Shown piece by piece: positions 515-56,040 of a stretch of 64,000 bases of DNA; within the stretch, counting starts at the first letter, position 1; every line of letters begins with the position of its first letter. The DNA comes from Raillietiella orientalis (taxonomy: Eukaryota). The stretch spans positions 3,472,001-3,536,000 of the forward strand of contig JAYWIR010000011.1 of assembly GCA_036172245.1 (NCBI GenBank). Reading direction: 5' to 3'. Below the pieces are notes generated by a model. That model ran no database searches. It was not told the DNA's origin and worked only from the letters and a program-made list of their open reading frames with translations. A program made the translations under genes and the position numbers.

Positions 515-552
515 ATGCTTCTCGGCCTTTTGGCTAAGATCGGAGTGGAGTA
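515..552 (+). pseudogene. U2: U2 snRNA 5' fragment (about nt 1-39), 3'-truncated
   Basis: AT-GCTTCTCGGCCTTTTGGCTAAGATC-GGAGTGGAGTA. 25 consecutive nt (517-541) match the U2 5' stem-loop I region; the rest aligns to arthropod-type GATCAAAGTGTAGTA with 3 mismatches; similarity stops right after the branch-point recognition sequence. Confidence 0.85.
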
Positions 553-900
553 GGGCCTCTCAGAAGTCGGCGATGAACGCGCTTTCGCTAACAGTTCGTG
601 AGGTACAACACGCTAACCTTTTCCCCTTTCGACACGGATGCGCGGTCACTACGTGGAGCCGTCAGCACCACGAAACGGACGGCATGGATGATTTTTTTTC
701 GCTTTCAAAGGCAATTTTTTGACCTTTCTATTACACTACATCCATGGTTATTTATTTTTCATTTTTTTCCCTCTCTGTCTTCCCTGAACGAACCTCGCTG
801 GCCAGCAGTCTGCTTCCACATTACCTACCCTCTTGTGGTTAGCCCTTTGCATGAATTGGGGTCCTACACGAGTTAAATGTTTGTAGTTTACAACAGCCAC
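553..900 (+). mobile_element. 5'-truncated L1/Tx1-like 3' end fused to the U2 fragment
   Basis: T-rich tract, then GAACCTCGCTGGCCAGC and GGGTCCTACAC...ATGTTTG, resembling 3'UTR motifs of the L1 copy at 16060-16160 (GAACTCGCCGGCCTGC; GGCCCTACACATGTTTG). Confidence 0.4.
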
Positions 901-2845: not shown

Positions 2846-3279
2846 CCCCACTGCGAGTCGGACTGGAACACCCACTGAGCGGCCGAGCACAAGCACACAC
2901 AGTAGAATCTCCGGAAGAAGACCAACAACAACTCTTCGTCTTGAGCAGCGCCGAAAAGACAAGCAGCTTGGAGCGGATCAAACAGCGAAAGGCAGGCTGG
3001 AACTGCAGTGTTGAGTTTCGCCGGCAAAGGATCCGATCCTCACTCTCGAACACCCGCTGAAGACCAGGGTCCTGCCAACAACGACGAAACAAAGGATATA
3101 AACCACAGACTCCTTTCGCGACTACCGAGCCAAGGAGATCTTGGAAGCGGAGGGCGGGAGATTCCCTTCCTGGAGTCGGTTGGGTCCTTGAGAGTTTTCG
3201 CTTGATCAGAGCTCCGGTAGAGGTGCTGTCGGCAGTATTTCCGGATGTCCGCTCCACCGAGTGCGTTACTGGATTGTCA

Positions 3280-4610
3280 TTCGGGTGCGCCGGAGTGTTT
3301 ATTTCGTATGAAAAGATAATCAGTCCTGGTCTCTGTGGTTAGATCGATAGTCCAACCACGTGCAATTTGACGGGAGCCTGCCAGATTACCGGTCTGCAGA
3401 CCGGTGAAGTCCGCCAAGGCAGAAGAGGAAAGGGGGGCAACCAAAGGCAAAAAAAAGAAACAGAAAAATGCATAAACAAATTTGAAGAGTGTGGGGAGGG
3501 GTCACGTTCTGCTGGAGGCGATCCTCTGCATCCTCTGTAAGATGCCGGCAAGCTATTGCTGTATACAGTGCTTCAGATGGGGGCATCTCGTTGCCATCCT
3601 TATGAATCGGGCGGCAAAGTGGAAGTGGCACCCCTGTCGCTGCGTCCTCTTGCGTCACTCCAGGCAGCTACAAACCCTCGTAGGCAGCATAGGGCTGCTA
3701 GCGAGGCTGCGGACCGAATGGCGTCGCGAACAAGGAGGGGTCGTAAAGCGTCTCTGGAGTTGCCGCCGGGGGTTCCGAAGATCGCGACGAAGCGTTCCCA
3801 GAGGAGCCGGCAGGAGCTGCTGCTTTCCCTACCTCTCATTACGCGGAGTTTGTGTGGCCGCAGAGTAGTTACAAAGTCTCGGGGTGTCCAAGCTGGTCAC
3901 AGCTAAAACACTGCTTGGCGATCGCACTCTTTTGCACTCCCTGTTGCTGGTGGATCAGCCATGCTTCCGGACCAGCAGTTCCATGCCTATCTGCAATCCG
4001 TTGGGCTGACACTCTTACTGCGAGGCGGGGACCGCCATCAAACCATCGAAAACCTTTCGGAAACCAGGGAAAAGAGTAGCTCTGTGCCACTGTGGCACAT
4101 TCTGCAGCATCTCCTACCAGCTCACCCAGAGCAAGATTTCCATGAGGTGGCAGCAATCACACAGTCTTGGGTGAAGGGGAAGAGCCAGAGGGCTGCCATC
4201 GAAATGAGTCACCTCTGCAACTCCGCAGGTGAGTGTTACCTACGCTAGAGGGAGAAGAGGCCCCTGGACTCTTCTTCCACGCGCCAAGCCTTTGGAGCCC
4301 GATCGAAAACGAAGCCGTGGGAGAAGACCTCCCCTACTACGTAGCGCAGGGCGCGCCTGTAGCCATGACTTCTACGCCACCCAGGTGGTTGCTGTGCCAT
4401 CCAGATGGTTGCTGTGCGCTGCTGGAGGACCCACATCGCTCCGCTTTCTCGGAGAGGCGGGAAGGGCTGGGCTGCCGTCTGTCTCCAAGACTGACCGGCT
4501 CCGAGGGAGCCGGGCTCTCATCTTCCCTTCAGCCCTTCTCTTTGCGCCTGTGTTTGTTGGGTTTCTTTACTGACTACCTTCCTCACCATCAAAAAAGGGC
4601 AAATGCCGCC
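3280..4610 (-). mobile_element. L1/Tx1-like ORF2 3' fragment with 3'UTR
   Basis: CRLLWERFVAIFGTPGGNSRDAL...AASLAALCC is homologous to 15700-15830; family C-terminal motif GCCGGCATCTTACAGAGGATGCAGAGG; T-rich UTR; terminal AATAAA-CCGG motif at ~3282-3303. Confidence 0.6.
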
Positions 4611-5149: not shown

Positions 5150-7215
5150 TTCCACTTCCCTTCTCTTCCTTCTCCTTCCTTCCCATAAATAGATGGCCCG
5201 GTGTATGGCCTTTCGTCCTTTCTGGTGCCCCTACTAGTGCATAGAGAGAAGCCACGATCCTCCGAACCCAGTGCAGACTAAGGGAGACCAGAGAAGCAGG
5301 CAAAAGTCATCCACGCGTGAAGCAACATTGCAGCAGAAGCTCCACCAGGGAGTCTTCATGGTGAGGCATCTGCAAAGAAAGGCACTGCAGCCCGGAAGCA
5401 GATTCAGTGACCACTCGGGCGCAGGAGTGCTGGATGGTACGGGAGACTCCAGTGTGAGATGGCCAAAGCAGCGTGCTGCTGCCACCTGTGGGGGTTGCAC
5501 GGAGCTGCTTAAATGGAATGCAAGGATCTCGAGTTCCAAGGTGGGTTGCCCGAAAGAGCTGTCCAGCCTGGCAGCTCTGAAAGTTGAGCTGAGTCGACCA
5601 ACGAACCGTCGGCCATTTCCCCACGAGGTTCGTCACTCCTGTTGTGGAGATTTCCCGCCCTGCCGTTTGCCAATTGTCTCCCCTCTCCCATAGAGAGGGA
5701 GGCATTGCGGCTTAGAAGGTGGCGTCTGCGAGGGTCCATCTTTTGGGAAGAGACCGATGCTTTTCAAGGAGGCAGTCCCAAGCATCTGGACGAGAGCTTT
5801 GAGATGGACCCTTGAGTGCCTCGACGTCGGCCTTTGCCTCGCCCCTTGGTGACGCGGTGGAAATGGAAAGAAAGTGCCGGGGCAGGGATGCAGTTCAGCG
5901 TGTTCTGGATCGGCACTGGTTTCTCTAGAAGGAACCTGCGATCTGGAAACGGGAGCAGAGCTCACTCTTTTTCGTCCAGCTAGACGAGACCTCGTTCTGA
6001 CGAAAGTCGCCCAAGTGTAGAAGAAGGGGATTCTCGCGATCTGTCCACGGAGATCCCCGAACGGATCTGACGTGGCTGACATCTCCACGTCGCACCGATG
6101 AGGGCGACCTTCGACTTCAGCGTGTGCACGTGTATATCCTCTGCCCTGAGAATGAGGTCGAAGAATTTCTTGGGACAAGTCCTTGGACTGGACATGAGCA
6201 GCAGGAGAGGGAGGTGGAACGCGTACACCACCGCCACGGCCTGACACCTCAGTGAGAGATACTTGGCAGTGTCTCCAGGGTCTTCCTGTACGCGCCTAGA
6301 ACTAACTTGATGCTGCACGGTCTGAAACTCGAGCTCTTCTCTCCCCGCGTTTCTCATGCGAGCTTTAAGAGTGACGCCCGTTGAAACCAGTGTTCATCAG
6401 CACGTCGCTCCAAGGCGGGCTCAGGTGACCAGCAGGGTTTCCGGAGTCCCAGAAAAAGCTCCTCATCCGTGAGGTTGAACGTTATTTGAAGACTGGCTGA
6501 GACCGCCAATGCTCCTGGAGCTTCTCCTCTCGTACTGCCTTTTCGCGAGGTGCGGTGGCTTCGATAGCCCCTAGGCACTCAATGGCGATCCCTCTTTTGA
6601 AGACAAATCAGTGAGCAAAGAACAGTCTGTCTATCATGCATCTCTCGGGAAGAGAGCATGGATGTTCCGGAATGATTACAGAGGTGGCAACCTCCGTGAT
6701 CTGCCTGCCCCAGGCACACGGTCCGCAGTTTCGAGAGCTACTCGATGTCCCGGTTCACTAAGGCGGTCGATCGGATGCCAGCTACTCAAGCTGTGTGCGT
6801 CTCGTCCTTTGAAGAGACGTACTCCAGCTGATTGCAGAGTTGTCAACTCGTCCTTCTCCCGATCACGGTCATTTTACACACCAGGGTCGCGGTACCGCAA
6901 CAAAAAATTGGCAGAACTCCGCCGGCAGACCGTCTTCCCAGATGCTTCTGCGCTCTTCGAGCATCCCCGTGGCGGCCATCTCCCCCGTCGACAAGGGTTC
7001 GTCCAAGCGCACGCGCTCCTTCTCGATTAACGCCGCAGAGCACTCCGACAGCAGCTGCTCCGCTTAGTCACTCCCGATGGACCACTTCGCGTACGCGGAA
7101 GCGTACGAGTCACCTGCCATTTTCCTCACCTGTGCTGGAGCCGAACGTTCAGGGACCTCTTCCGCCGGTCCAATCTCTCGATACTTACCTTGACTTCTCC
7201 TCCTCCTCCTTCGTG
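5150..7215 (-). mobile_element. Decayed L1/Tx1-like ORF2 (RT domain 0 through thumb and zinc finger)
   Basis: Minus strand LIEKERVRLDEPLSTGEMAATGMLEERRSIWEDGLPAEFCQFF (RT domain 0), LFKGRDAHSLSSWHPI (domain 1), KYLSLRCQAVAV...CPKKFFDLILR (thumb); many frameshifts and deletions. Confidence 0.8.
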
Positions 7216-7224
7216 CTCATCCAA

Positions 7225-8610
7225 TTGTCACCGGTAGTTTATTGCTTACGATGAGCATACAAGAATCACTGGCAGAAGCCGAGGTCCTACTAGATCCAAA
7301 TGCACTGCCGAGATGACGAGATGCCGGTACTTTGACCGACAAGGTTCGCCTCTGAAACAGAGGGGATGGAAACCAACAAAGAGAAAACAAAATACAAATA
7401 AATAAATGCAAATAAATAGAAATAAAAATAATAAATAAACGTAAAAACATCGAGGAAGGCTTCGGGAAGGGATTCCTGGCTGCTGCGGAGCATCCTCTGC
7501 ATCCTTTGGAAGATGCCGGCACACTCCACCACAATGCTTCTCATGTGGAGTCATCTTGCTGCTATCCAGGAGGAGCCAATGGAGAAGAGGATGGAGTTCT
7601 TCTTGTGCTTTGGTCTCTTTCAGTGACATTATGGCACTCCACAATCCTGCGAAGGCGGCAAACATTCCCTGCCGCGACTCTGCTAGCGGCGGTGCACCAC
7701 GCACGAGGAGGAGTCCTTGGGGTTGCCCATAGGGGTCTGAAGGGCCGTCGTGAAATGACTCCAAAGGGGTTTGAAGGCAACGTAGTTTACAAGCAGACGC
7801 GTGCAGTATTCCCGTCTCCGCACCTCCAACAGTTTAGATCCACCCTCCCCCTGGTTCAGTGATGCCTGCGGACGTTCATTGGGAGACCTCAGTGCAACAT
7901 CAGCAGGACTCACTCCATCAATTCGATGGAAACTGCGAAACTTGCGGGACTGTTTATGGATGCCGAAGAAAGCACCGGGTCTTCTGAGGGAAATCTTCAG
8001 AAGCTGATGCCGGAGAATGGGTCTTTTTTGGTAATTCAATTGGGATGGCAGGGTCCGTGAGCTGGATCGCCGTCCATCCGCCAAGCGGTTTCTTGTTGCA
8101 GAAGATTTCGCAGGGGACTCTCGCCTCGCCGGTAGGCAACTGACCATTTTGTTCCCTTAGGGAGGGCAGCGATGCAGCGACAGGGGCGCTCTCTGTGTGC
8201 ATGCTGGGAACATTGGTGATCTTTCGCGGGAAGTCCAGCTGCTCCCCTTCGCCCGGGTAGCCAACCGGAGGAGCTGATGTCCGCATTGGACAACACGTTG
8301 GAATGTCTGCGCATGAGGAAAGAAGAAGGTCCTTCTCAGCCGGCTACTCGCTTAACGAAGACACCAGTGAGCGCCCCGGTGTTTCTCTGTGAAGACCAGT
8401 GTACCTCTGGCAGTAGGATCGGGTGGTCAGGTCTTCCACCCCGACACGGAGCAGTAAAATCTTTGAGGCAAACACGGAACCTCCCTGTGCTCCAAGGCTT
8501 TCCGTAGAAGTTCCTCGGTCCCCTTTTTCATATATTTGAGAGCGGAACAAACGGAAAGGTAGGGAACTGGAGTAGAGAGGGGAGAGGCTACGAACGTGTC
8601 TCACTTCCGG
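7225..8610 (-). mobile_element. L1/Tx1-like ORF2 3' fragment (thumb, zf-RVT, 3'UTR)
   Basis: ESVLLMLH*GLPMNVRRHH*TRGRVDLNCWRCGDG and LWSHFTTALQTPMGNPKD; GCCGGCATCTTCCAAAGGATGCAGAGG C-terminus; T-rich UTR. Confidence 0.75.
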
Positions 8611-11347: not shown

Positions 11348-11823
11348 TACGAACTGGTCACTCCAGCGAAAAAGAACTCCAGTGATCCCAGCAAAACTGC
11401 CACGTTGGAGGTGGAAAGGGCATGGCGATTTTCGGTTTCCTTAGCTTCCAGTGCCATAGCCAAGGTCTCACCAGGATAGGAAGCGCTCAGCCGACGACTC
11501 ACCTTTGGTTCTGAGGTCCGGACGGAGCTTTTGGCCAACCCCAGAATGAATGGGGGCCCCCGCTCTCATCTTTTCCCCTGCCGCCACTTATTATGATTTC
11601 GTTGATCATCAGGTCGCGCTCCTGGGTGGCGAGGTGGGATTCCTTCTTGTTCGAGCGCGCACTGAGCCTCGCGCCACTCGGAGTGCGGAAGAAGTGCCTG
11701 AGGGCCTTTTTTTTTTTTTTTTTTAAAACTCAGCATGGGGAACATTTGTTGAGATCTCCCCTCCTCCTCCGGGTCACCACAGTGATACCCAATATTTGCG
11801 AAAAGCATCGCGACGACTTGTTT

Positions 11824-11963
11824 CTTTTGCAAAATCCATAACTGGAAGCTCCCCTCCCCTTCCTTTCCTTCCTCCACTGCAGGAAAGGAATTCTATCCCA
11901 GTTTCCTGTAGTGAAGGAAGGAAGAAAGGGGAAAGGGACTTCCAGTTATGGGTGTTGCAAAAG
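11824..11963. repeat. Long imperfect inverted repeat (~62-bp arms, 15-nt loop)
   Basis: Left arm CTTTTGCAAAATCCATAACTGGAAG...CACTGCAGGAAA (11824-11886) is the reverse complement, with few mismatches, of TTTCCTGTAGTG...CTTCCAGTTATGGGTGTTGCAAAAG (11902-11963). Confidence 0.9.
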
Positions 11964-12394
11964 GCACAAATCCCAAGCTTCATCTTTCGGGATGAGCAGA
12001 GCTCATTCAGTTGGGATTTGTCAAATTTCCGGGTCTCCAATCCCATTCTTCGAAGCAGAAGCTTGCTGGATTTCAAAAATAAGGATTTCAAGAAACTTTG
12101 GAGAGCAGTCGGCCTTTTTTTGATGTGGCTGCTCACCTTCGGTCTATCCGTTCTTGTCAAACATGTGACGTAGGAACCCTGGACTCTGTGAAAGCGATCA
12201 GTCCTGTTTGGCATCCCGATTTTTTCACGTGGTTTCCCCGGAGCATTTGACATATCAAAGGATTATACGAAAAACCGGGAACTCATACCTAGTGTGAAGT
12301 ATGGAATGGAAGGCGCAAAACCACCATCTCTCAGGAGAAGCAAGATGGTAGAGCGGATGCAGCTGGTGGAGGAAGCCCGAGCAGCTGCAGTCAC

Positions 12395-13850
12395 AAGTCT
12401 CTCCACCCGGACATTTATTACATGAAAGGATAAATATACATTTTTGTGGTAGAACACGTGATTCTGCCACGTGAAAAATAAGAACACAGCTGATCTGCCA
12501 AATATCAGTGTGCAGACCGGCGAGGTGCGCTTCGGCAGCGAAGGAGAAGTCGAGAACAAAAATAAAAATACAAGAAAAAAAGAACGGGAAACGGGGAGAT
12601 GGAGCAATCGAGGAAAGGGTCACTGTTCCCTGCGAGTTGTCTCTTACATCCTGCCCAGGATGTTGGCAATTTAGCTGCGTACAGTTGTCCAAGCGGGTGC
12701 ATCATCTCGTGGCGCTGCTCAATAAGATTCCCGACCAGTGCATGATGTTTTTTCCGTTCTGGCCTCTTCGGAAACAGCAGAGAACTGAGAGGGAGGCTGC
12801 TGGCGGCAGTGAAGAGGGGTTTCCAAATGTCCCTGAGGCCACCCACTTGCATTCCAAGTGTCATGGCTGGGCGATTCCAAAGGGGTCGGAGGTCAGCATA
12901 GTCTAGAGGGCAACAGTGGCAGATGCGGGAGAGTCTCCCTCTCCCCGCACCTGCCACAGCTCGCATGCACACTCCACCGTGTGCTATAGTGAAGGCGTGC
13001 TTTGCACAGGATCCTCCAATGCAAGAGCCGCAACGTCAACTCTTGCCACTGAAGGGGAAGGGTGCAACTGTTCCAGCACGCTGGGGTCCACTTCATGTGC
13101 CAAGTAAGGCGCCTGAATGCTACGCGACGGCAGCAGTATCCTCTCCACCTGGAGATTCCGTAGTGATCCCGGAACGAGACCTAATTTCCTGTCTAAGAAT
13201 TAGAGGCGAAGAAGGGTGCACGCGGAACAATTGGTGCAAAAGTGACCACGGTCACGTTCCGCGCAGGCGCTGTAACAAATACCTCTGTGCGCGACATTTA
13301 CCTGGAGATGCACAAGACCATCGCCTTAAGGAGCTCGAAGGCGATCTTGCCGTTTGTCGGGGAATTTTCACGAAGAGTTCAGAAGTGTTCGATGATTTTT
13401 TTAAGAAAGGGATCAAGGGCAACAGGTGATCTCGGGAAGCCACAGTTTGCATCCACGCTGGCCCATGTCCAGTGGCGGAGTGCTTTGCACGGGATTCTCG
13501 AACTCTCGGGTGCTCCTTCCAGGATTCTAAGCTTCCTAGCTCGCAGAGGTTACCTCTTGTGATTCTTCGAATGGATGAACCAATACGGTCCGTCGGGCGA
13601 GGCGTCAACGGAAGAAGAGTGCCGACGTAGCAACTGCGCGGAGCTTCTTTTGGACGACCCTATGAGGATGGTGCATTCATCGGTGGAAGTTGCCGACAGG
13701 ATGGTCTCATTGGATGAATCGCGATTCGCGCAGAATCTTGCCATAGGATCCCTTCATGAGCCGACCGAACACCCATCAGTAGGGATGCTTCCAAGTTCTC
13801 TTTTCTTGAAACCGGCACTCATGAAGCTGCCACGATTCCGGTAAATTTGG
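12395..13850 (-). mobile_element. L1/Tx1-like ORF2 3' fragment with 3'UTR
   Basis: ORF 12893-13096: LPLQWQELTLRLLHWRILCKARLHYSTRWSVHASCGRCGERETLPHL (zf-RVT); UTR motif CGCTGCCGAAGCGCACCTCGCCGGTCTGC; AATAAATGTCCGGG end. Confidence 0.75.
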
Positions 13851-13899: not shown

Positions 13900-16204
13900 A
13901 AGAAGACAGTGACAAAAGCACACTGTGTCTACGGGGTGTCCTTCCTCTGTTCAGTCCAACCGCTTCCCGATCAGCAGTTTCTGGAGCTGGACCTCGGTTA
14001 CACCACGGGAAGTGACGAAGGAAAATTTGCAACCTTCCCGCTCAACATGTTGGCCACGAAGCCGGTGCGCGAAGACACGCATAGTGGATGTGATAATGGA
14101 GAAGCAGCCTCCAGCTCCATCCGAAGCAGTCCAAAGAAACCTCACCTCCCGGTTCGCTGGCCATCGAAATCGCGGCAATTGCAGCGAAGATGCGGATCTC
14201 GAAGATAGTTCTTTTGCCAGCAATGGAGACCTTCCAAGCGACGTCTCGAATGGTCGGTCCATACAAGGAAACGTGGTCGCCGCCTCGCAAACAGCCCCCG
14301 AGTGCAGGGCTGTGATTTGTTCTTCCTGCTGTCGTCAGCGTGGGGACTGAGGGGGGCGGCTTCCTTCGCGTCCCCATCCCACGGTCGGCGGGACGACAGC
14401 TCCGGTGCATCCTCGTGAATGTGGGAATCCGGAGAGCTGGTGTCGCACCTACTGCCTTGCGTATGGTCCCGCATGGCTCGGGGCGAGAGGACTGCACGTC
14501 GCGTGCCCCAAATGCCTCCCTTAGGATGTGGGACAACGGGGTTTGGGCTGTCGGACAAGAACGAGAGATCGACCTTCCACTGAATTCGTCCAGGAGATCC
14601 TCCGCGAGCGCGCGACCGTCGAAAGAGCAGGTTCCCTGTGATTCTGACAAACGAGATGGGCCTCTGGGACCGGACTGCACTCCCGCTCGCGCACGTGCGT
14701 CCCTGAAGACATGTGTTTGAGGAGCCGTGTGCTCTCGTTAAGGCAACGAGAGCTCCTTGGTGGACACCCTGAAGCTCAGGAGCCAAGCAAACGGCGCGCA
14801 CCCCCTTTCTTCAGTACCAAAAGGGGGGTCACAAAAACGCCCCGAGTCCGCCTGAAGGACTTGTTTGCTCCTCGTCGCGACGGAGGCCTCGGCCTCCTGA
14901 CTCTGCAGCGGCTAGAACTACAGCTGCAGTCCAGGACGTTAGCCCCAGTGGCGCAGTTGTGGAGCTCCAGCTGGTGCGAGCCTGCACGATACCTGGTCCA
15001 GTGAGCCAGCGGCTGCGCGGGACTGTCTACCTTCCTAGCGCACCGCAAATGCCGGTACCCGTTCCACTGCGGACTGGCGCTCCGGCGAGTGGTTAAGCTG
15101 ACCAGGACGAACACCTGGATCTTTTTCCGGCCCGCGAATGGCACTTCCTGGTTGCAGAAAAACCTTCGCACATGGACCCAGATTGGGGAAGCGAGCCCGA
15201 TGTTGGGGCAGCGAATGCTGCACTCCTTTTACAACACCCACTCGCTGCAGGACATCATCGTGCAGCCCGCCTCGAGTGCGTGGGCTAAGAGGACCTCCCT
15301 AGCCGCGGCTCTGCCCTACCTCAGGAAGCACCTGAGCAGTAGTCAGCGGCCAATTGGCAGGTCCGATGTAGAATCTCTACGAGAGAGACGGAACAAGGTA
15401 GTTGGACCACGGGCCAGCTGACTGACGCTGAGACCCCAAGTGCCCCACCGAAAGGGTTATTGCACTGGGGCGAACTGCTGAGCATCCCGCTGAATGTACT
15501 CGAGTGACCCCCAGTACTGAGGAATACCCGGGCCCTCCCTCTGAAGTGGCAGGAGTCGGCGTTTCTGGTGTTGCATTGGGGACTCCCCAGCAGCGCCCGC
15601 CGATCTCACTGGACGAGGGAGGCAGTGAACCCGAACTGTGTCAGGTGCGGGGTAGGGGAATCCCTCCCGCACCTACTTCTCGACTGTGCTGCCCTCCGAA
15701 CCCTGTGGTTGCGTTTCGCAACGGCCCTAGGTGCACCCATGAACAATCCTAGAGACGTATTCAAGCGCCTCTTTGTGCGCGACTCTCTTTCGCCTGCCGC
15801 AGCCCTTGCAGCCCTTTGCTGGCGGCCTGAAGCAACGCCACTCGTGGACAGAACGATAGGGACGCCATCTGCTCCGCCCTGCGCTTCTTGAGGACGGCAG
15901 CCGGAAGGTCCCTTCTGGGACGTATACGGACTGAATTGCCGGCATCCCGGAAAGGATGTAGAGGACGACCCCAGCGTAACGTGATCCCTTCCCCTCCCCC
16001 CCTCCTGCTTTTGTAAATAGTGTTTTCTTTTTTTGTTTTTATTTGTCCCTTCCCCCCCGCTGCCGAGTCGAACTCGCCGGCCTGCGCGCTGGCTACTCGG
16101 CAAGTTCAGAGTTTTTGTCGGACGTTGTAAGGGCAATGGCCCTACACATGTTTGTTTGTTTTTTTGAGAAAATAAGTGCCCCGGAGCACCCGGATGTGAT
16201 AAAA
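13900..16204 (+). mobile_element. L1/Tx1-like ORF2 remnant (RT, thumb, zf-RVT) plus complete 3'UTR; copy A
   Basis: GRSIQGNVV (RT domain 2a), RVLSLRQR, RVRLKDLFAPRRDGGLGLLTL (thumb GGLG motif), LHWGLPSSARRSHWTREAVNPNCVRCGVGESLPHLLLDC (zf-RVT); ends AATAAGTGCCCCGGAGCACCCGGATGTGATAAAA. Confidence 0.9.
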
Positions 16205-28639: not shown

Positions 28640-29300
28640 GAAGTTAGGGCAGCACGCCGTCTGAGGGCCCGCCTACCGTGCAGACGACTGCGATCTCCTG
28701 AAACACTCAGTCCACCTTTTCCCGAACATGACACTCGGGTGCGGCACTGGTGGAACCCGGAACCTTCCGGATGAGCGGCCGGGATTGGAAGTCCTCGGGG
28801 ATCTTTCCAGGAATCAAAAAGTCGGTTCCCTTTGGGCTCCCCCTCCGGTTGTGCGGATGGAACCGTGCCATCTCGTGCCATGAAGCTAATGGATCGATGA
28901 TCACTCCAGAGCGTGAAGGAGAGCTCTGCTTCCTTCGAGAGTGACCCTTTATGCAGAGAAAATTCGGAAACGTCCCCTCGGGGTTCTACTCAGAGGAGGA
29001 AACCAGGAGTGGTTCCCCTACGGGTGCCCTCTGGTGAAGAAATGAGTGAGGGTTCCTTCCGGGGGATCCTCGAGGAGAGAATAAGGAAGGAGATTTGCTT
29101 TGGGGTTCTCTTCAGAGGCAACCAGGGTGGAGGTGTTCTCTTCGGGTTTCCCTCCGAGACGTGAGAAAAACGAACTCCTTCCTCCGGAGGCCTTCCTGGA
29201 TTCATAGGGTGGTGGTCACCTCCCGGGAGGTGACCACCACCTACACCTCGTAGAGCTAACACGTACCCTCGAGTGGAGTGGATAGTGTTCAGCTTAATGA
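28640..29300 (-). repeat. Dispersed repeat family X, copy 2
   Basis: Shares TACTCAGAGGAGGAAACCAGG, CCTTCCTGGATTCATAGG, TTCCAGGAATCAA and GGTGCGGCACTGGTGGAA with copies at 48.2-48.8, 49.8-50.5 and 62.1-62.6 kb. Confidence 0.7.
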
Positions 29301-32888: not shown

Positions 32889-33037
32889 TGGCGCCAGTGA
32901 CAGGTACGGAGCAGCTGCCAGCATTGTGGCGCCAGTGACAGGTACGGAGCAGCTGCCAACATTGTGGCGCCAGTGACAGGTACGGAGCAGCTGCCAACAT
33001 TGTGGCGCCAGTGACAGGTAAGGAGCAGCTGCAAACA
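32889..33037. repeat. Minisatellite, 38-bp unit x ~3.9
   Basis: TGGCGCCAGTGACAGGTACGGAGCAGCTGCCA(G/A)CATTG head-to-tail at 32889, 32927, 32965 and 33003, with no spacers. Confidence 0.97.
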
Positions 33038-40309: not shown

Positions 40310-40800
40310 ATGCCTGAAGGAAAGCAAGGGTGCCAATGTCTCCAGGGTTTCGCGTTGATCCCAGCTGCTAGGCCGCTTCTGGGACTTTTGGATAAGATCA
40401 AAGTGCAAGACTTGGGAACGCTGCTACCACCGTCTGCAAACCAATGCGTTCCCGGAACGGATTTAAACCTTCATCCGAACCTGCTAATCCAGAAGAGTAG
40501 CTGCCTGGTAGTAATGGATGTCTCCTCTCCGTTTCAACACGGGGAGGCAACCTTCAGCATTCTTAGACAGCAAAAAGAGCTCGAAGATGAAATATTGCTC
40601 AACGGTTGAATAGAAAAGGATTGCAAATCAAGTCCAAGCCTTCGTGGTGGTCTCACCGGGATGTTTGAATCCGAACAACGCAGTTCTTCTTGATTTGGGA
40701 GATTCTAGGCTGTACACCGAGAAAGAAGGACAGTCTATGGTTGTTTCTTGTATTCGGTGTAGTCAAGACGTATGTTGGGCCAATTGCCTTCGGCCCAACA
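40310..40800 (+). mobile_element. R2-superfamily (Utopia/NeSL-like) REL endonuclease fragment
   Basis: NQCVPGTDLNLHPNLLIQ...VMDVSSPFQHG..F...RQQK (RPD..D...PFE..K) then VVSPGCLNPNNAVLLDLG..RLY...MVVSCIRCSQDV. Confidence 0.75.
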
Positions 40801-40899
40801 GACGACGCCTAAAAGGAAAGGCGGCAACGGAAGATATTTGTCTGGGTCTCCAAATGAAGTTTGCCAATCAGAAGCCACTGAGGGACGTCTTCAAGGAGT

Positions 40900-41968
40900 G
40901 ACCTGCTAGTTTCAGACCTTGTGTATCACAAATTTGAAGATGTCGTAGACTAAGCAGCCAGCTCGCCGTGTGCAAGGGTGATTTCAGGAGGTTGTCGCTC
41001 GCACAGGCAATTCCTACTTGAGCCGTGCCTCTCGGACGGATGGGCAGCCATGAAAACTGTGCTCCCTGAATAAAAAGTGTCACGGTGCCTGGTGCTGACC
41101 AACTCACAACATGGGCTCAACGTTTGGTTGCTTCTCTAGATGTGGCTTGCATTTTCTTGATTCCAGATGCACTCAAGTTCTCATCCAGAGTACATCCATC
41201 CTCATATCCTGGATGAATGGCTATTCGAACTTGTATTTCATCTTCGTCTCACTAGACGCTTGCCTGTCCATTGTCCAAACACTCTCAATGCCCCTAGTGA
41301 GTCTGCTAAACTTCCCCTGTGTCTTTCCGAACATCGTTTTTCGGGTCTTCTTCCGTTGGCTCTAAGCAGAGTCTTTTCTGTTCCACCGCACAACTTGAAA
41401 TTCTTCAGGATAGTCTGTGATTGAACATCGATCCTTGTGTGGCCAGATCTGGAAGAGCCGGCAATCGGAATTGGCTATTCATTGAGGGGTTCTCCTGCCT
41501 CATCCCCTAAATTAGGAAGACGGAGACGTCCTTTCCGATCAGTAGGGCGTTCATGCACCTCTCTGGTCGGTGAGCTCGCTGGGACTTTACCTGCTTCCTC
41601 ATTCTGCGGTCAGAGACGTCAACCATAAGGAATCCTTCCTTATTCGCAGCCGATGTCCCAAGAGATGGTGCCTAAAGATATCAGGCAACGATCGGCTATT
41701 GCGACACACCAACTTCTTAATACATCCCACCTTTGGTTCTCTTCACAAGGCATAGTTCTCTGGGTGTCAGGGCCTCAGACATGCTACGGCGGGTACATGA
41801 AAAGCTCAGTCCCACTTGTCTGCATTTTTACCATTGTTCTTTGGTGCAGTCACCGGCCAGCTGTTGAGGAGTTTTTGAAAGGCATAAGACGTCCCCTACT
41901 TGTGGGATCAGATCGAGTCAGAAAAGAAATTGACGTCAGGCTGGTTGCAGTTCATCGAAGCCCATTGT
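40900..41968 (-). mobile_element. RTE-like endonuclease/linker remnant (continues at 43192-43340)
   Basis: DEDEIQVR linker-like segment; the piece beyond the L1 insertion reads VVR*KKQ...NHCIGNRNEPRRNG, like RTE APE (E.RW...G.F...Y.G....RRNGV). Confidence 0.45.
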
Positions 41969-43191
41969 TTTATCACACCCGGGTGGGCCGGGGCGTTTAT
42001 TTTTGTCAAAAAAACAAACAAATATGTGTAGGGCCATTGCCCTTACAACGTCCGACAAAAACTAGGCGCAGGCCGGCGAGTTCGACTCGGCAGCGGAGGG
42101 GAAGGGACAAATAAAAACAAAAAAAGAAAACACTGTTTACAAAAGCAGGAGGGGGGTCGGGAAAGGGATCACATTACGCTGGGGTCGTCCTCTACTTCCT
42201 TTCCGGGATGTTGGCAATTCAGTCCGTATACGTCCCAGAAGGGACCTTCCGGCTGCCGTCCTCAAGAAGCGCAGGGCGGAGCAGATGGTGTCCCTATCGT
42301 TCTGTCCACGAGTGGCGTTGCTTCAGGCCGCCAGCAAAGGGCTGCAAGGGCTGCGGCAGGCGAAAGGGAGTCGCGCACAAAGAGGCGCTTGAATACGTCT
42401 CTAGGATTGTTCATGGGTGCACCTAGGGCCGTTGCGAAACGCAACCACAGGGTTCGGAGGGCAGCACAGTCGAGAAGTAGGTGCAGGAGGGATTCCCCTA
42501 CCCCGCACCTGACACAGTTCGGGTTCACTGCCTCCCTCGTCCAGTGAGATCGGCGGGCGCTGCTGGGGAGTCCCCAATGCAACACCAGAAACGCCGACTC
42601 CTGCCACTTCAGAGGGAGGGCCCGGGTATTCCTCAGTACTGGGGGTCACTCGAGTACATTCAGCGGGATGCTCAGCAGTTCGCCCCAGTGCAATAACCCT
42701 TTCGGTGGGGCACTTGGGGTCTCAGCGTCAGTCAGCTGGCCCGTGGTCCAACTACCTTGTTCCGTCTCTCTCGTAGAGATTCTACATCGGACCTGCCAAT
42801 TGGCCGCTGACTACTGCTCAGGTGCTTCCTGAGGTAGGGCAGAGCCGCGGCTAGGGAGGCCCTCTCAGCCCAGTACTTGAGGCGGGCTGCACGATGATGT
42901 CCTGCAGCGAGTGGCTGTTGTAAAAGGAGTGCAGCAGTCGCTGCCCCAACATCGGGCTCGCTTCCTCAATCTGGGCCCATGTACGAAGGTTTTTCTGCAA
43001 CCAGGAAGTGCCGTTCGTGGGCCGGCAGGAGATCCAGGTGTTCATCCTGGTCAGCTTGATCACTCGCCGAAGTCTGCAGTGGAACAGGTACGGGCGCTTG
43101 CGGCGCGCTAGGAAGGCAGACAGTCCAGCGCAGCCGCTGGCTCGCTGGACCAGGTATCGCGCAGGCTCGCACCAGCTGGTGCTCCACAGGT
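41969..43191 (-). mobile_element. 5'-truncated L1/Tx1-like copy B with 8-bp target-site duplication
   Basis: Inverted homologue of 14958-16204; flanked by CCCATTGT at 41961-41968 and 43192-43199. Confidence 0.92.
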
Positions 43192-43340
43192 CCCATTGTC
43201 CTGGGTAGCCTTGTGGGTGCCTCCCATTTCGTCGTGGCTCATTGCGGTTGCCGATGCAATGATTCAAGATATTTGGGAAACTGTCCTTTTGTTTCTTTCA
43301 TCTGACGACGTGCTATCGCGCAGGGAACGACTTCTGCGTC
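43192..43340 (-). mobile_element. RTE-like APE N-terminal piece (host of L1 copy B)
   Basis: GNRNEPRRNG motif; joined to 40900-41968 through the TSD. Confidence 0.4.
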
Positions 43341-44949
43341 ACCTCATCCGAGGCATCCCGAAGGAATGAAAACAAAAAACAAAAAACAGCGAAGATGAAA
43401 AGAGAGTTCTGAAGAATCTTCCCTTGAGCCATTCCTTTCAGTAACAAGTGATAAGTCCTTGCTCCGTTTTTTCTGCCCTCTTGCATGCTGGCTTTCCCTT
43501 GAGAAACCGAGAATCAAAAGGAGCACATTCCTCAATAGAGATGACTCATCCAGCCTACTTATCAGTTTTGCTGCAGATTCAACTTCACGGCTCCTCATTC
43601 TTCATATTTTGCAGATAACCCTGATGAGTAGCACTCCACCCCGGTAAAAATTATCCTCGAGGCGCGCATGCATCAACAGACAAAGGCGAAATCTGCGGAT
43701 ACTCCCGCGCAGCTTCCAGCGCGTTCCGGTAGCTCTCAAACTGTCCTTCCCACTTTCGTCTCCGGTAGCCGTCGCGTCGGATGCTCCGTGAGCGCGCACG
43801 CGCCTGTAGGAAGTCGCGTCTTTCAGAAAATCGGAAGGGAAGCTGCTTCTCTTTCGCGCGTTTCGTCTAAAATGGAAGCAATCTGTCACATCTGGATCCT
43901 CAGAGAGATCTCATTCTTTTCCCCAGACAGGAGTGTAGGTTGCGTCTGAAGGCAGCTTGAGCGTTCCCGACCAGGTGCAGAGAACGAAAGCGGACGTCAG
44001 CCCGGCATTGCCCGTGCTGAGCAGACAGTTCAGCCCGTGAGGCCCCCTACATGGCGTGGCTTCTCCAGTAAGAGAGGTCTCGGACTGTGATCATCTGCTG
44101 CCCCCTTTCGAGGGTTTCCAGCAGCTCAACCCCTGGAACGAGGAAGACAAGTTCCGTTTTTACTTCGTCATCTGCAGAGATTCCGACGTGGATCCGGTCT
44201 AGGTTGAAGGGGGACAGAGCTGTCGTCAGTGTTGCTAGAAAGGCACATCTCTTGCCTGGCTGCAGGGACGGCTCGTGCACTCGCCGGTCTCTGTGCGAAA
44301 AGTCTTCTGGGACACACAGAGGTCTCTGGTCCGCTCGAAGCACTTGCGCGCTCCGCGTCGGGACGGAAGATTCGGTGCCGTTCTGAGGCTGGAAAGAATG
44401 AAATGCATCAGCTCCAGCTCCAAAGAGCAGCCCTGGCAGCGAAGTTTTGGATCACCCGCTGATACATGTTGGCCGGAATCCTGACCAAGCGAGCAGCCGG
44501 TCCACCTCGTTTCTCGTTTGCAAGACTGCCGCGAGGGGGGATGCCAGCTTCGGCAGATGATCGCCTTGGCTGAGGACCACACTCGAATTTCCTGTATGCC
44601 GACGAAGTGTGATGCCTGGAAATAGGAAGCGGCTCAGACATGGTAGAAAACCAGCCGCACGAGCCTGGAAGAAACACAACGTTTGCGGAGCTCCATTTGC
44701 GCTCGCTGCTCGCTGAAGAAGATGATGATCTGCCAAGGGAAGACCCTCTTGCTGGCTTAGAAAATCTTTCATGATGCGACACTGCTGCTCCTGCGGGATA
44801 GCCAGGACGGTCGCCAGCACGCAAGATGGGTTATAAACTGCAGCAAGATCTCAGGAAAAAAGAACCTATTGGGATGTTGAATAGCGTGTCAACTAGCTGA
44901 AGCTTCCACCCACGCCGCCCTCTCCAAAGAATTTATTTGCTAAGCGCAT

Positions 44950-45706
44950 ATCCTCGCAATCCTGTTGAAAGAAATCGAGATCCTAGCGGTGTTCTCGTAC
45001 AGTTCCCTCCTTCCCCCGAAGGGACAGGACCGGGCGTTAGGACTGCTGCATTGGGCCATCTGATGCAAAGCACGCCTCCACCACTGGACCAAAGGATATG
45101 CGGCCCCAAGGTGTGATAGGTGCGGCAAAGAGGAAACCTTACTCACCTGCTTTTGCAGGGTATTGATCTCCGATGTGTATCAAACGTCCACGTTCCTGAA
45201 CTTCCTAGGAGACCACTCGAGGGTCTCATTCAAACTTAACACGTGGAGGGATGTCTCCTGCTGTGACAATCGCAGTTTTGTGCTGCGTCCACAGTATCGT
45301 GGCAGCTGGAAGTCCCGACATGAGAGGCCGGAACAACAGAGAAGGCACCATCTCCATTAACTTCTCACTCCAAAAGATCGCGTTGAGATGGCAGCACCTG
45401 CGGCACAACCAGAAGGAACTTGCCGGTATCCTTGAGAGGATTTAGAGGCCACCAGAGAGCAATCTGTGGTCCCTTCCATCTACCCCCAAAACATCTTAGA
45501 ACCTTTTTTTTTGGTTTAATATTTATTTATTTTTGTTTGTTTCCCTTTCCTGGGCTGAGCTCTTCTGGAGACTACTGCGAACAGAGGACTCCTCCGGAGC
45601 CCGCGGAAGAGTAGCACTGCTCTGCCTCTTCAAAAAGTCTGAACGTTCTATAGAAGAAATTCTCATTTTTTTTTACAAGGAATGTCCCGGCATGACCGGG
45701 TTAAAA
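44950..45706 (+). mobile_element. L1/Tx1-like zf-RVT 3' fragment with UTR
   Basis: ALGLLHWAI*CKARLHHWTKGYAAPRCDRCGKEETL; KELAGILERI C-terminus; ends GTCCCGGCATGACCGGGTTAAAA. Confidence 0.75.
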
Positions 45707-46759: not shown

Positions 46760-47370
46760 GCATTTTATTTTCATTCTTTTCAAGCAGACGATCGGTTTTC
46801 TTTGCCTTGAGTGCTCTTGAGAACTCACTGCATGCAAGAACTCAACTTTTATTCGTATGGATGGACATATCATTGTCCATTCCTCCAGGAGGAGTTCTTT
46901 CTCGTGCTTTTGCGTAAGAAGAAGGCACACTGTCCTGCTTCGATCCAAGCACTTTCCACGGTATCTTCAAAGTACCTGATTCTCCCTTCGGGGGCCAAAA
47001 AAAAATGCCAACAAGTAAATGTGCAGCTGCCAAGTTACCTACTCATCCACATCCGCCTTTTTGTCGTCGGAAAGAAGTAACGCTCATCCTTTTACCTGAT
47101 ATGCATTCTCTTGGGTTTATCAGCTGACTCCACTCTCATCTCTCCCGATTCCCGCCAGAAGCAGTTTCGTTCAGCATCCAAGGAAGAGTTCATCTCACTA
47201 CAAAGTAGTGAGATGGGAAACCATTCCTTAGAAGGGTGTCGTTCAGAGCACAGTATCAAATTTTTAGATGGTATTTACATCACTTCCTTCGGAGTGCTGG
47301 TTCTCGACTCCTGTGATGAAGGAGCTGCTGTCACCAAAAAGTCTCGCTTTTTAAATTACAACTTCTAAAG
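46760..47370 (-). mobile_element. Possible pogo/Tigger-like DDE transposase remnant
   Basis: LLLEEWTMICPSIRIKVEFLH...PIVCLK resembles LL.DN..H....IKV.FLP.N.T...QP.D...LK. Confidence 0.35.
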
Positions 47371-48214: not shown

Positions 48215-48760
48215 GAAATCCTTTTGGGTTCTTTCTCTCTCTTCACTGTTTTCCTTCCTGCTTTTTTTTTTTTTCTTCGAGTTTTCTTTTCTTTGGTTGG
48301 ATGAGTACCTTAAGAACCGTCTTGCACTCAGCAGCCCACGAAGCTCTTCAGCACTGCTCCACGCCACCTGAGGGTGCGTGTAATTCTTCAAGGTAGGAAA
48401 TACTCCTATGAATCCAGGAAGGGGTCTGGAGGAGGGAATTCGTTCCTCTCACGCCTGGGGAGGCGTCATGAAGGATCCCGAAGGGAACAACTCCACCTTG
48501 GTTGTCTACGAAGGGAATTCCGGAAGGAATCTCCTTCTTCATTCTCTCCAGAGAGACCCCCGGAGGGGTCCGTTCCATTTTTCTTCTCCAGAGTGAAAAC
48601 CCGCAAGGGAGCAACTCCCGTTTGCTCCCCTCCGTAGAGAACCCCGGAGGGACGCTTCCGGGTTTTCTCAGAAGGGAGCTCCCCGAAGGGAGCAGCACAC
48701 TTCTCTGCACTCTCTGGAGAGGTGTCATCGATCCACCAGCTCCATGGTTCGAAATGCGCA
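48215..48760 (+). repeat. Dispersed repeat family X, copy 3
   Basis: GAAATCCTTTTGG, T-rich tract, AAGAACCG...CACGAAGCTCTT and CCTATGAATCCAGGAAG. Confidence 0.75.
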
Positions 48761-49764: not shown

Positions 49765-50510
49765 ATCGGTGACAGGGAAATGGGTGCGTCGTGGCTTCCG
49801 AGTTCCCCCTGCAAGATGACGCTGGTTGGCTTATTCGGGTGCGGCACTGGTGGAAGTTCCGGATGTTCCCACTCACTGACCAGTATTGGAAGTTGACCCT
49901 CCGGAGTCCTTCCAAGATTCAAGGAGTCCGTTCCCTTCGGGTTCCCTCTCTCCGGCTTTGAAAATGGAGCCGTTCTATCCCCCCCCCCTCCCGGAGGGAC
50001 CCTCCATCTCTGTCTATGGAGTTGGTGAATCGATGCTTCTCCAGAGTGTCAAGAAGTGCTCTGTCCCCTTCAGGAAACCTTTTTAGACCATCTGGAAGCG
50101 TCTCTTCAGAGCTCTCTTCAGGGAAGGAAACAACTTGCGGGTTCCTTACAGTGAAGAAAATGAGCGATCCCCTCTGGGGAGGTCGCTCCGGACACAACCA
50201 GGGCGAAGGTCATCTTCAAGGTTCCTTTCCAAGAGTAAGAAGAACAGTCTTGTTCCTCTGGAGCCTTCCTGAATTCATAGGTTGGTCCCTTCCCAAGATA
50301 CCCCCTAAAAATTGAATAGTCAACACGCACCCCCTGGTGGAGTGGACTATCTTAAAGAGCTTCGTAAGCCCCTAGGCGAACGGTTCTCGAGTACTTAGCG
50401 GACCAAGAAAAAGAAAACCTAAAGGAACAACAAGAAAAAAAAAAAGCTGGAAGGAAAACAGCGGAATAGAGAGAGAGAGAGAAAAAAACGAAAGGATTTC
50501 AATCATCATG
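49765..50510 (-). repeat. Dispersed repeat family X, copy 4
   Basis: AGAGCTTCGT..CTAGGCGAACGGTTCT.GAGTACT and A-rich tract ending AAAGGATTTCAATCATC (plus strand), shared with copies 1, 3 and 5. Confidence 0.75.
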
Positions 50511-53379: not shown

Positions 53380-54290
53380 GTTTTCACCCTGTCACCCCGG
53401 GGCGTTTGGTTAAAGAAAAATAAACAAATCTTCTGGGGATGCGGTTCCCGGAACAAGATCGAAAAGCAGTTCATGCAGAAGGCTAGCCGCCACGGAGGTC
53501 GGATGCTGAAGTTCAGAGATAGACGGAGGGGATCAATAAGCAGATAAAGAAAAAATGGAATGAGGACAAGAGTCTTTGGCAGTAGCCACTCCTTACACAG
53601 AACCAGCTCAGAATACCAGCAGTCTCCCTGGAGACTTCTTTCAGGTGCGTGTCCTCCCTTCGCTGCGTCCGAGACTCCGACAAATGGCAGGCTGCCACGA
53701 TGGCACGGAAGCAACCGTCCATCGGTGGAATCACGACGCCTACCGAGAGTGCGACACGCGCGGAGGATCTCCGCAGCAGGTCCTCGTCAGTGTCCTCCGG
53801 AAGCGAGAATGCTGAAGACAGCCTCCACCACAGTTGCTGGAGGACACCAACAGGTGCAGGAAAGTCCTTACGCACCTTTCGCAGTTTGAGGATGCAGCTC
53901 CTCCGAAAAACGGGTGCCGACGCTGGTTCCCCTGGAGACCCCAGTGCAGGAAGAGCAACACTTCGTGCTTCCAGTCCAAGAGAAACATCGGGAGCGTCCA
54001 GGCACAAAGGAGGGACTACTAGTTCTTCGGGATGCACACTTAGTAGCCCCTGCCACCGAAAAAGTCAGTTCTCCCGGGAAAGAGGTGTGGCGGCACATTT
54101 TCCAACCGTCCAGGAGTTTTGTAACTCTTGAAATGGTGTAAAGGAACTTCCGCCTCGTCGCTGCTTGCCCCAAGGGCAGACAGCTCCGCAGCAGGGTGTG
54201 TGTGGCCACTATCCGGGACCATTTTGTCTAGTCTTGCAGGACATCTGCGAGAGGGTGGTGGAGGAGAGTCTACGGCCAGACAAAAAAAAA
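53380..54290 (-). mobile_element. L1/Tx1-like zf-RVT 3' fragment with UTR
   Basis: DWKHEVLLFLHWGLQGNQRRH...ASSNCERC; EDLLRR; RETAGIL C-terminus; terminus AAACGCCCCGGGTGACAGGGTGAAAA. Confidence 0.75.
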
Positions 54291-54399
54291 AAAAATTTAG
54301 AATAAAACACACTGTTTTGTTTCCACGCCAGTTTCTCTGGGTGTAGGGGTGGCAAGCCGGTTCTAGACCGTCTTCCGCCACCAGGTATTCCGGTTCGAG

Positions 54400-56040
54400 G
54401 GGTCACAGGAGATCCACGTGTGGGCTTCCCCCAAATGAGGCCAGTGGTTTTAAAGGGAAGTCTAATCCTTCATCATCCTGTGCCAACGCACGGCAGCAGC
54501 GATGAGCGTGATTCGCTACCGGGGCTGCACCGAAGGATGAGTTCAAGAAAGCACCACTGAGAAGTCCGGAAGCCCAAGCGCGCATCCGGGTGCCACAAAG
54601 TCTTTGGTCCCCCAGTGCCATTCCCAAGCGCGGTGCCATACAATCAAGTTTCTGCGGATTAGGGACGTTGACATTCCCCACGGGATTTCCTTTAGGAGAC
54701 GCCGCTCCCGGACCTTCGCCGAATGGCTGGGTAGGCGAAGCACATTAGTGGCTTCTACTGAGTGAATCCTCCCCCATTCCTTGCTTTCATCATTGCTGTC
54801 ATTCTGTAGCTCTTGCTGCGCCAGAGTTCCACAACCGTATTCCTGGACCAGAGCAACTAGAAACGGGAAGATCCCATCCTACTGATGTAGTCCATGGAGA
54901 CGACTTTTGCGTCCGCATTCAGTTTCGTGCCGTGACTTTTAAAGGCCGGAGCTGTATTAAAGGGAAGCCGAGCTCTCAAAAGCGCTATGCTGTCAGTAGT
55001 TCAGCATCATCTTCTCCCACCCACGTGGTCGTTTTCAGATGCTTTACCTCCTACTGCACCTTCTCGGACGTGCGCTGATGGTCGAAGCTGCTCCGAGGAG
55101 CGTTCCTCTGCCTTTCCTCACAACAGTGCTCCTGGAGGATGCATTCGACGCATTGGTCGAGCAACTTTACAGATTTCGTCGAAATCGCAAGCCCTCGCTG
55201 CTTCTGCGATTGCCGCAGGATCGAGTGCGTGTTCTGCCGCAGCATCCGTTGCTCTTCGGGTCTCTGTAAAAGTCAACTTCTCATTCCTAAGCTAGAGGCA
55301 GTTTGCTGTGATGAAGCGTTTGCTCAAGACCTGCTTCTCGCCCGGATTCTCGATGTAATGAAACCGCGACCGCTGGGTCCCTTAGTTCCCTTTATCTGGG
55401 ATAGGATTCGGGTTTTCTTGCGAATTAAATGAGATTCGCTCCTTCTTTCCTTGCCCACAGAGTGCAGCCCGTATCCAGAGGATTGGATCTTCACTTTGCC
55501 GTACTTTACCTGCCCTACCAAAAGGGCTCTGCCGATCCCTTTCCTCCAGTTCGATGCTCTATGACCGCGGTTTCTGCTGGCTGGTGTGTCCAGAAGGACG
55601 TGCAGGGCCTCCCGTGACCTGGATCCTTTGACAGCCTCATCTCCTGAGAGAAAACTCCAGAGCTGTCCCGCAGGATCTCACGCTTTCGGCACTCACGCCA
55701 GGGATTTCAGCCTGTGCGGGCAACTTCTCTCTCCATTTCTTCCAGGGAGGACCCGCATTCTACGAAATGGCTGAATTTCCACGTGGGAAGGAATTGACTT
55801 TTCCCGCAAATGCTGGAGGTGACTCCTCAGTTCTGTGGTCTAGCTTGAGTTCAATGTGATTTGTTGATGCCCTCTTGCTGCTCGAGGTCACCCCACCCTC
55901 TATCCCATCGCGCTTGTACTCTAGCTGACCTACGATGGTCTGTTCTCATTATTGGGATCGCATGAGCGGTTGGGGTCCTTCGTCTCGGTGTAGCATTCCT
56001 TGCTGATCACATGCTCCATTGTGTGATCCGCACAGCGTAC
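54400..56040 (-). mobile_element. L1-like ORF2 5' remnant (APE, linker, RT domain 0)
   Basis: ITQWSM..RN...IVGQLE (APE start-like) and KSRGE/GNVNVP around the KSPG position; degraded. Confidence 0.4.

Follow-up and report, generated by a model that had tools for sequence, protein, structure and literature searches.

Introduction

The retrotransposons Keno (Tx1 clade) and Utopia (RLE) interrupt U2 small nuclear RNA (snRNA) genes, and U2 resumes at nucleotide (nt) 39 downstream of both elements, as stated where their insertion sites are described (PMC4640811). In crocodilians, Tx1 and SINEU elements have recurrently gained short U1 and U2 pieces at their 5′ ends, for which the author proposes a template switch (PMC4494074). 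The U2 heads are 32 bp long in SINEU-3, are called a ‘short U2-derived sequence’ in SINEU-1J and also occur in Tx1-11_Crp (Kojima 2015, PMC4494074). According to the SINEU section of this account, the units are shorter than 500 bp, contain internal T runs, are presented as having no pol III promoter and are mobilised by a Tx1-type LINE (PMC4494074). The origin of snRNA-headed retroposons, either by a template switch or by co-transcription from a targeted snRNA gene, and the way in which they are transcribed are named there as open questions.

Here, we analyse a 64-kb stretch of DNA (the window, in its full length), near the start of which a U2 5′ end had been proposed to be fused to an L1/Tx1-like 3′ end at the Keno/Utopia insertion position (515–900; the original prediction). 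Positions 514–931 are a real, decayed junction between U2 nt 1–38 and a LINE tail, and junctions of this kind have already been described in mammals and crocodilians. The unit consists of three parts:

514–552, + strand: U2 snRNA-derived head (U2 nt 1–38), identified by cmscan with RF00004, a 25-mer match and alignment to the U2 gene of metagenome locus L003
553–639, + strand: linker with no demonstrable homology in a sub-profile test and in pairwise alignments
640–931, + strand: diverged, 5′-truncated 3′ UTR of a LINE family reasonably labelled L1/Tx1-like, identified by nhmmer profiles and shuffles

Results

The head, cATGCTTCTCGGCCTTTTGGCTAAGATCGGAGTGGAGTA, comprises stem-loop I and the degenerate branch-point recognition motif GTGGAGTA of U2. 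cmscan aligned positions 1–38 of the Rfam U2 model (RF00004) to 514–552, with model positions 39–46 deleted in the target and the remainder scattered. The score of 22.2 bits (E 0.03 in a 701-nt search, E 2.8 in a search of the whole window) is low because the match is short, and lies below the gathering score of 46 that we took as the mark of a full-length U2 gene; at Rfam gathering thresholds, no RNA gene was matched across the window. The 25-mer at 517–541 is identical both to the Rfam U2 consensus letters and to the intact U2 gene of L003. With up to three mismatches, its only occurrences in the window start at 517 and 40375, and none of 100 dinucleotide shuffles contained any match. Pairwise alignment to the L003 gene spans U2 nt 4–38 and ends exactly at nt 38, and nhmmer with the same gene as query extends the match at 514–552 to nt 44, where it stops. 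One base of U2 is absent near nt 3, one is added after C28, and the GTAGTA motif carries one substitution relative to L003. These differences are unevenly spread, with one change in nt 1–28 versus about four in nt 29–38, and the same concentration in nt 29–38 is seen in both U2 heads of the window.

The match begins at U2 nt 1–2, which is the U2 transcription start (cmscan), and breaks right after GTGGAGTA at nt 38, close to the extent of about nt 1–39 that had been predicted. Beyond nt 38 the cmscan alignment contains no credible 3′ part (stem-loops IIa to IV and Sm site). A U2 3′ half, which had been predicted to be missing downstream, was indeed found nowhere in the window, neither by cmscan (E ≤5) nor by nhmmer with the L003 U2 gene (E ≤1). 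The window likewise holds no other snRNA at cmscan E ≤5 and no tRNA that could serve as a head. Profile and in-window repeat searches found no LINE-like sequence upstream of 514, and the U2 piece therefore marks the 5′ border of a LINE fragment and does not lie within one. The head is a dead copy of the U2 5′ end, and the locus a decayed relic that probably has no function.

The break also agrees with the predicted Keno/Utopia position, since the head stops at nt 38 and U2 continues from nt 39 after these elements in their published description (PMC4640811). A 5′-truncated LINE might thus have inserted, in the manner of Keno, between nt 38 and 39 of a U2 gene or pseudogene that was resident at the locus, with subsequent deletion of the U2 3′ part. 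Such a history would explain the junction at nt 38, and real U2 genes are interrupted by LINEs of the wider group, as a metagenome locus presented below (L016) demonstrates. We nevertheless regard it as very improbable, because U2 nt 39–188 is absent after 931 and anywhere in the window, the two U2 pieces of the window have dissimilar upstream flanks, and other 3′ termini of the LINE family are not in U2.

Sequence downstream of the head was compared with the LINE copies of the window. A profile built from nine in-window LINE 3′ ends matches 750–887 on the + strand (E 1.2e-3, 11.5 bits, bias 9.4), and iterated profiles (16 matches, with the locus masked) extend the match to 640–884 at E 2.5e-3 to 1.3e-2. 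Because the region is T-rich, dinucleotide shuffles of 553–960 were run as a control; they reached the real score in 0 of 3000, 0 of 3000 and 1 of 3000 cases for the three profiles. The tail has the same strand and the same order as the LINE family and agrees with the profile consensus in 76 of 135 aligned columns (about 56%). In a comparison by eye, 903–931 (GAAGAAACTAGGTTCAAGCCGGGTCAAA) resembles a decayed terminus of this family, so that the unit would end near 931 and not at 900. The body is a single copy in the window: blastn found no further copy of 553–900, single-sequence nhmmer for this region gave E 0.2 at best, and neither program detected a second copy of 553–931. At 418 nt, the complete unit 514–931 combines a small-RNA head, a body and a LINE-family tail and contains internal T runs. 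RNA folding of 514–935 revealed no special structure (z 0.96).

The linker is less clear. In the sub-profile test of 553–639 just one weak block appeared, at 665–685 (−0.7 bits), and near-global pairwise alignments to family copies span 555–936 (best z 3.9), although their lenient scoring leaves the boundaries uncertain. By its length, 553–639 would correspond to about the last 65 nt of a LINE ORF2, with the ORF2 stop near 618, followed by the start of the 3′ UTR; under the one-event interpretation below, it would be LINE-derived. The predicted LINE 3′ end downstream of the U2 piece is hence borne out for 640–931 by profiles and shuffles, was not recovered for 553–639, and has its end moved to about 931.

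We tentatively interpret 514–931 as a non-functional chimeric retrocopy, in which the U2 head was joined to a 5′-truncated LINE cDNA in one event. A U2 match that runs from the transcription start to nt 38, a 64-kb window without any U2 3′ half, the location of the U2 piece in front of a LINE fragment and not inside it, and a tail that follows the strand and order of the LINE family and closes with its terminal motif are all in favour of this interpretation. The linker counts against it, as it is not demonstrably LINE and the joint may therefore be indirect.

Alternatively, two unrelated events could have brought the parts together. A 3′-truncated (‘tailless’) U2 retropseudogene would have landed by chance about 0–90 nt upstream of an older 5′-truncated LINE fragment, its synthesis having been primed by pairing between a nicked target and the single-stranded branch-point segment of U2. 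L1-mobilised, 3′-truncated snRNA pseudogenes are known, and the passage on their formation explains truncation by single-stranded segments that pair with the target (PMC4476161); this would account for a recurrent break in the branch-point region without Keno. The clustering of U2 differences in nt 29–38 would fit a stretch that is partly target-derived, the linker 553–639 is not assignable to a LINE, and the second U2 piece of the window stands alone, without a LINE tail. The share of LINE fragments, about 20% of the window, is also in favour. Still, we consider two events unlikely, as a U2 piece would by our estimate border the 5′ side of a same-strand LINE fragment by chance in only about 1–3% of cases. 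In support of the one-event chimera, we estimate from the 16 LINE blocks that a random point falls within 100 nt upstream of a same-strand block about 1–2% of the time.

The search for target-site duplications gave points against both of these interpretations. No duplication was found around 514–931 (empirical P 0.87), which counts against a single event, and the U2 piece by itself likewise has none (P 0.51 and 0.88), which counts against an independent U2 retropseudogene; under five boundary models, no duplication was significant. A weak candidate, TTTTCCCC at 619–626 and 936–943, would bound the LINE fragment alone. It would thus speak against the chimera and weakly for two events, but it falls short of significance (P 0.09). 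At a locus of this age, a duplication around the whole chimera may have decayed.

The LINE family that contributed the tail is old and dense in the window. Copy A as nhmmer query, followed by a profile, recovered 16 blocks totalling about 12.7 kb, or about 20% of the 64 kb (raw total 13,485 nt, minus the non-homologous part of the query at 14000–14794). Examples of these blocks and the young pair of copies are:

3275–3840, 7216–8493, 12391–13093, 14795–16204, 41968–43192, 44274–45701 and 53382–54421: blocks of the LINE family
14958–16204, + strand: LINE copy A, with an ORF2 C-terminus containing zf-RVT (15508–15888), a 3′ UTR of about 315 nt, and the terminal hairpin followed by TAAAA
41968–43188, − strand: LINE copy B, a young insertion with the target-site duplication GACAATGGG/AACAATGGG

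Most copies are 55–70% identical to the profile consensus, and all are 5′-truncated, reaching at most about 1.4 kb from the 3′ end. The 3′ terminus consists of AATAAA, a short CCCGG...CCGGG hairpin, GTGA and a few A. All 12 readable 3′ termini run into unrelated DNA and none into U2, which indicates that the family does not target U2 in this window; in this respect the original prediction found no support. A U2 head is present on only one LINE 3′ end of the window, that of 514–931, and on none of the 16 matches used for profile building, which is a further point against the one-event chimera. Copies A and B are 94% identical over 1248 nt, with 374 consecutive identical nt. As they also share their start position, a short master of about 1.25 kb may have been recently active. 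A 30-mer taken from this pair had no match among metagenome, genome and viral contigs.

The coding potential left in the window is limited to the end of ORF2. Among 256 stop-to-stop ORFs of at least 90 aa, zf-RVT (PF13966) was found in two (15508–15888, + strand; 42265–42645, − strand), with scores of 23.7 bits (E 7.8e-5, copy A) and 23.5 bits that are under the cut-off of 27.5, and no other Pfam family was found in these ORFs. The RT and the APE endonuclease of the family are absent from the window according to Pfam, tblastn and an ORF2 profile. A word search for longer proteins returned no relatives of the 127-aa ORF, and a HMMER scan of 1.84 billion representatives returned five, of which three (P0003–P0005) contain zf-RVT above the cut-off and two look like low-complexity noise. 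Atlas matches to the same ORF belong to eukaryotic clusters only, one of them with zf-RVT on 21% of its members. The 20 long relatives of P0003 all encode RT and zf-RVT, and 16 of the 20 also encode the APE endonuclease (PF03372); P0006, a relative of P0003, matches human L1 ORF2p (E 2.3e-78). Through these relatives, and hence at two removes, it is reasonable to label the LINE family of the window L1/Tx1-like.

Besides the LINE family, the window contains a second repeat family whose four copies (28735–29282; 48230–48756, − strand; 49835–50458; 62073–62588) are 69–77% identical. It has an A-rich end (50354–50442 and 62486–62574) and is twice found 80–180 nt 3′ of a same-strand LINE 3′ end. 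A 38-nt unit is tandemly repeated at 32889–33037 (3.9 copies, 97% matching). The stretch 11815–11972 is a 158-nt imperfect palindrome with 78% self-complementarity and yields sub-threshold matches to several miRNA precursor families (best 39.5 bits versus a gathering score of 84). The window has a GC content of 50% with a strong depletion of TA (o/e 0.49) and only a mild one of CpG (o/e 0.79), a composition that is not vertebrate-like. Long stop-free frames are, by estimate, about three times as frequent as expected at random, and no gene is recognisable.

The window contains another U2 piece, some 40 kb from the first:

40372–40410, + strand: second, more decayed U2 5′ piece, identified by the 25-mer with three mismatches, a two-sequence HMM and alignment to L003

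The two-sequence HMM matches 40372–40410 at E 1.5e-9, and its next-best match in the window has E 1.2. The piece aligns to U2 nt 3–33, with looser similarity up to about nt 38, and is not followed by a U2 3′ half. Its 3′ sequence has no similarity to the sequence downstream of the first head (z 0.2–1.2) and no match to in-window repeats, Pfam or the LINE profiles. A downstream neighbour common to the U2 fragments, as implied by the proposal of a lineage moving with a U2 cap, was consequently not seen in the window, where 553–931 also has no second copy. The upstream flanks of the two pieces are unrelated to each other, so that both seem to derive from the RNA, copied from its first nucleotide, and not from gene duplication. 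This agrees with the one-event chimera, for which a second piece that has no recognisable LINE tail is at the same time a difficulty. Two U2 5′ pieces per 64 kb are far above ordinary densities of U2 pseudogenes, and their presence points to a generating process that is frequent in this genome, in line with the one-event chimera.

Several fainter candidates in the same region were rejected. The second head does not appear to cap a near-full-length old LINE (40411–45701, with copy B nested in it), as tblastn and the ORF2 profile gave only E 6.5 and 7.0 there, in the wrong order; read-through frames of 43193–45402 and 40411–41972, with X at stops, contained no Pfam family. A sequence resembling the LINE terminus at 41068–41098, 658 nt 3′ of the second head, had no profile support. 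A third decayed U2 stretch at 46893–46930 (+ strand) was considered because 46899–46920 agrees with stem-loop I at 17 of 22 positions; it was not significant (E 2.4). Further decayed heads were not detected in the window, the next-best matches having E values of at least 1.2.

U2 was also found next to LINEs outside the window. We searched 80 metagenome loci (460,672 nt, ORF2 on the + strand), which had been collected with alignment A1 of 14 ORF2 relatives. With 514–552 as query, three loci matched, all on the + strand and upstream of ORF2:

L003: intact U2 gene at 72–263 (190.5 bits), located 2.75 kb before ORF2; a U1 gene start lies downstream, at 6094–6146
L016: U2 nt 1–41 only, at 15–55; ORF1 follows 53 nt later, then ORF2
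L031: U2 nt 1–50 only, at 554–605, with an extra base after C28; followed by a 70-nt leader, ORF1 (387 aa) and ORF2 (1022 aa)

The 41 U2 bases of L016 and the 14 bases upstream of them are 98% identical to L003; L016 is a LINE that interrupts a real U2 gene. No separate U2 3′ half was found in any of the 80 loci, and in L016 and L031 the contig may stop short of the end of the element. The window ORF matches 4 of the 80 loci at 27–48% identity, L003, L016 and L031 not being among them, and the window tail and LINE profiles match none. These loci show that U2-linked 5′ ends occur in the wider LINE group, as was already the case for Keno, and they are not evidence for the family of the window itself.

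An extra base separates GATC from GTG in three of three U2 5′-only pieces (GGA, AAA and AAA; the two window heads and L031), whereas the gene-derived U2 of L003 and L016 does not have this base after C28. It could reflect variation of the species, common descent, reverse transcription of mature U2 or slippage within a short run of A.

These observations bear on a third explanation, a U2-capped lineage similar to SINEU or Keno. A LINE residing in U2 at the Keno/Utopia site, possibly 5′-truncated, would be transcribed from the U2 promoter, and the resulting short RNA, consisting of U2 nt 1–38 and the tail, would be retrotransposed to sites other than U2; 514–931 would then be one copy of a non-autonomous family. 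In its favour, the head breaks off precisely at nt 38 and lacks a 3′ half, directly before the nt 39 at which U2 is stated to resume after Utopia and Keno (PMC4640811), and the second head likewise ends near nt 33–38. Size and layout of the unit fit the description given for SINEU (PMC4494074). In 2 of the 80 metagenome loci (L016 and L031), a U2 5′-only piece directly precedes a full-length LINE, the 14 nt before the piece in L016 being identical to those of an intact U2 gene, and the extra base shared by both window heads and L031, but missing from L003 and L016, could be a mark of the lineage. We find this explanation somewhat doubtful. The window contains no second copy of the body or tail, the sequences after its two heads are unrelated, and U2 abuts none of the 12 family termini. 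Moreover, the metagenome LINEs are only remote relatives with tails unlike that of the window, and the extra base is a single character that could as well be a species variant or homopolymer slippage.

Discussion

The original prediction had named a Keno-like lineage that moves with a U2 cap outside U2 loci and a U2/LINE chimera as the two possible origins. An origin from RNA fits the 5′ end at the U2 transcription start and the unrelated flanks, and of the two we would tentatively choose the chimera over the capped lineage. The qualifier ‘invertebrate’ that the prediction gave to the chimera finds no support in these data. Under the one-event chimera, the reverse transcriptase of an L1/Tx1-like LINE would have primed at a nicked target and copied about 380 nt from the 3′ end of the LINE RNA, comprising the 3′ UTR, perhaps together with the final 65 nt or so of ORF2. 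The enzyme would then have switched to U2 snRNA, entering at the single-stranded branch-point region (nt 38), and would have copied U2 from nt 38 to nt 1, so that the integrated cDNA reads U2(1–38) followed by the LINE 3′ end. The second piece, 40372–40410, could have arisen through the same tendency, with a 3′ partner that is different or no longer recognisable.

We infer the template switch and the joint arrival of head and tail in part from precedents, namely the snRNA chimeras of L1 and the U1 and U2 pieces on Tx1 and SINEU, as summarised in the discussion of such heads (PMC4494074). Against this interpretation, mammalian U6/L1 chimeras usually contain a full-length snRNA (PMC11838501), compared with 38 nt here, and template switching does not specifically predict a break exactly at nt 38. 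Overall, 514–931 is most likely a by-product of LINE reverse transcription and not a new kind of element.

A more far-reaching possibility is that this genome contains abundant LINE-mobilised retroposons that are headed by U2 nt 1–38, with the break at the Keno/Utopia site, and descend from a LINE resident in U2 genes and expressed from their promoter. We judge this quite unlikely. If true, this class would represent a second, independent origin of snRNA-headed elements of the SINEU type outside crocodilians, and the extra base after C28 in three heads would be a family mark or a scar of reverse transcription. To our knowledge, a single vertebrate group is the only source of snRNA-headed retroposons so far. 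Many U2(1–38) heads at the Keno/Utopia site in a second genome would allow the two proposed origins, template switch and co-transcription from a targeted snRNA gene, to be told apart.

Like 514–931, tailless snRNA retropseudogenes start at nt 1, are truncated in a single-stranded segment and have no poly(A), but they lie between duplications and have no LINE tail attached (PMC4476161). Keno and Utopia insertions likewise have U2 nt 1–38 upstream and break U2 at the same place; unlike in the insertions described (PMC4640811), no U2 3′ part follows 931, and the LINE family of the window is not U2-specific. In the L1 snRNA/L1 chimeras, as probably here, the 5′ part of an snRNA is joined to a 5′-truncated LINE 3′ end on one strand (PMC4494074, PMC11838501). 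The chimeras of that literature involve mostly U6, usually in full length and flanked by duplications (PMC11838501), in contrast to the 38 nt of U2 and the lack of a detected duplication at our locus. Differences from SINEU are that the unit is a single copy in 64 kb, that the second head of the window has an unrelated body, and that the dinucleotide content of the window is not vertebrate-like. In addition, the tail of SINEU-1 matched no LINE in the original account (PMC4494074), whereas the tail at 640–931 matches an identifiable LINE family. In its layout, the unit nonetheless resembles SINEU as described in that account (PMC4494074): it is short, carries a U2 5′ piece before a retroposon body and has its tail in common with a partner LINE.
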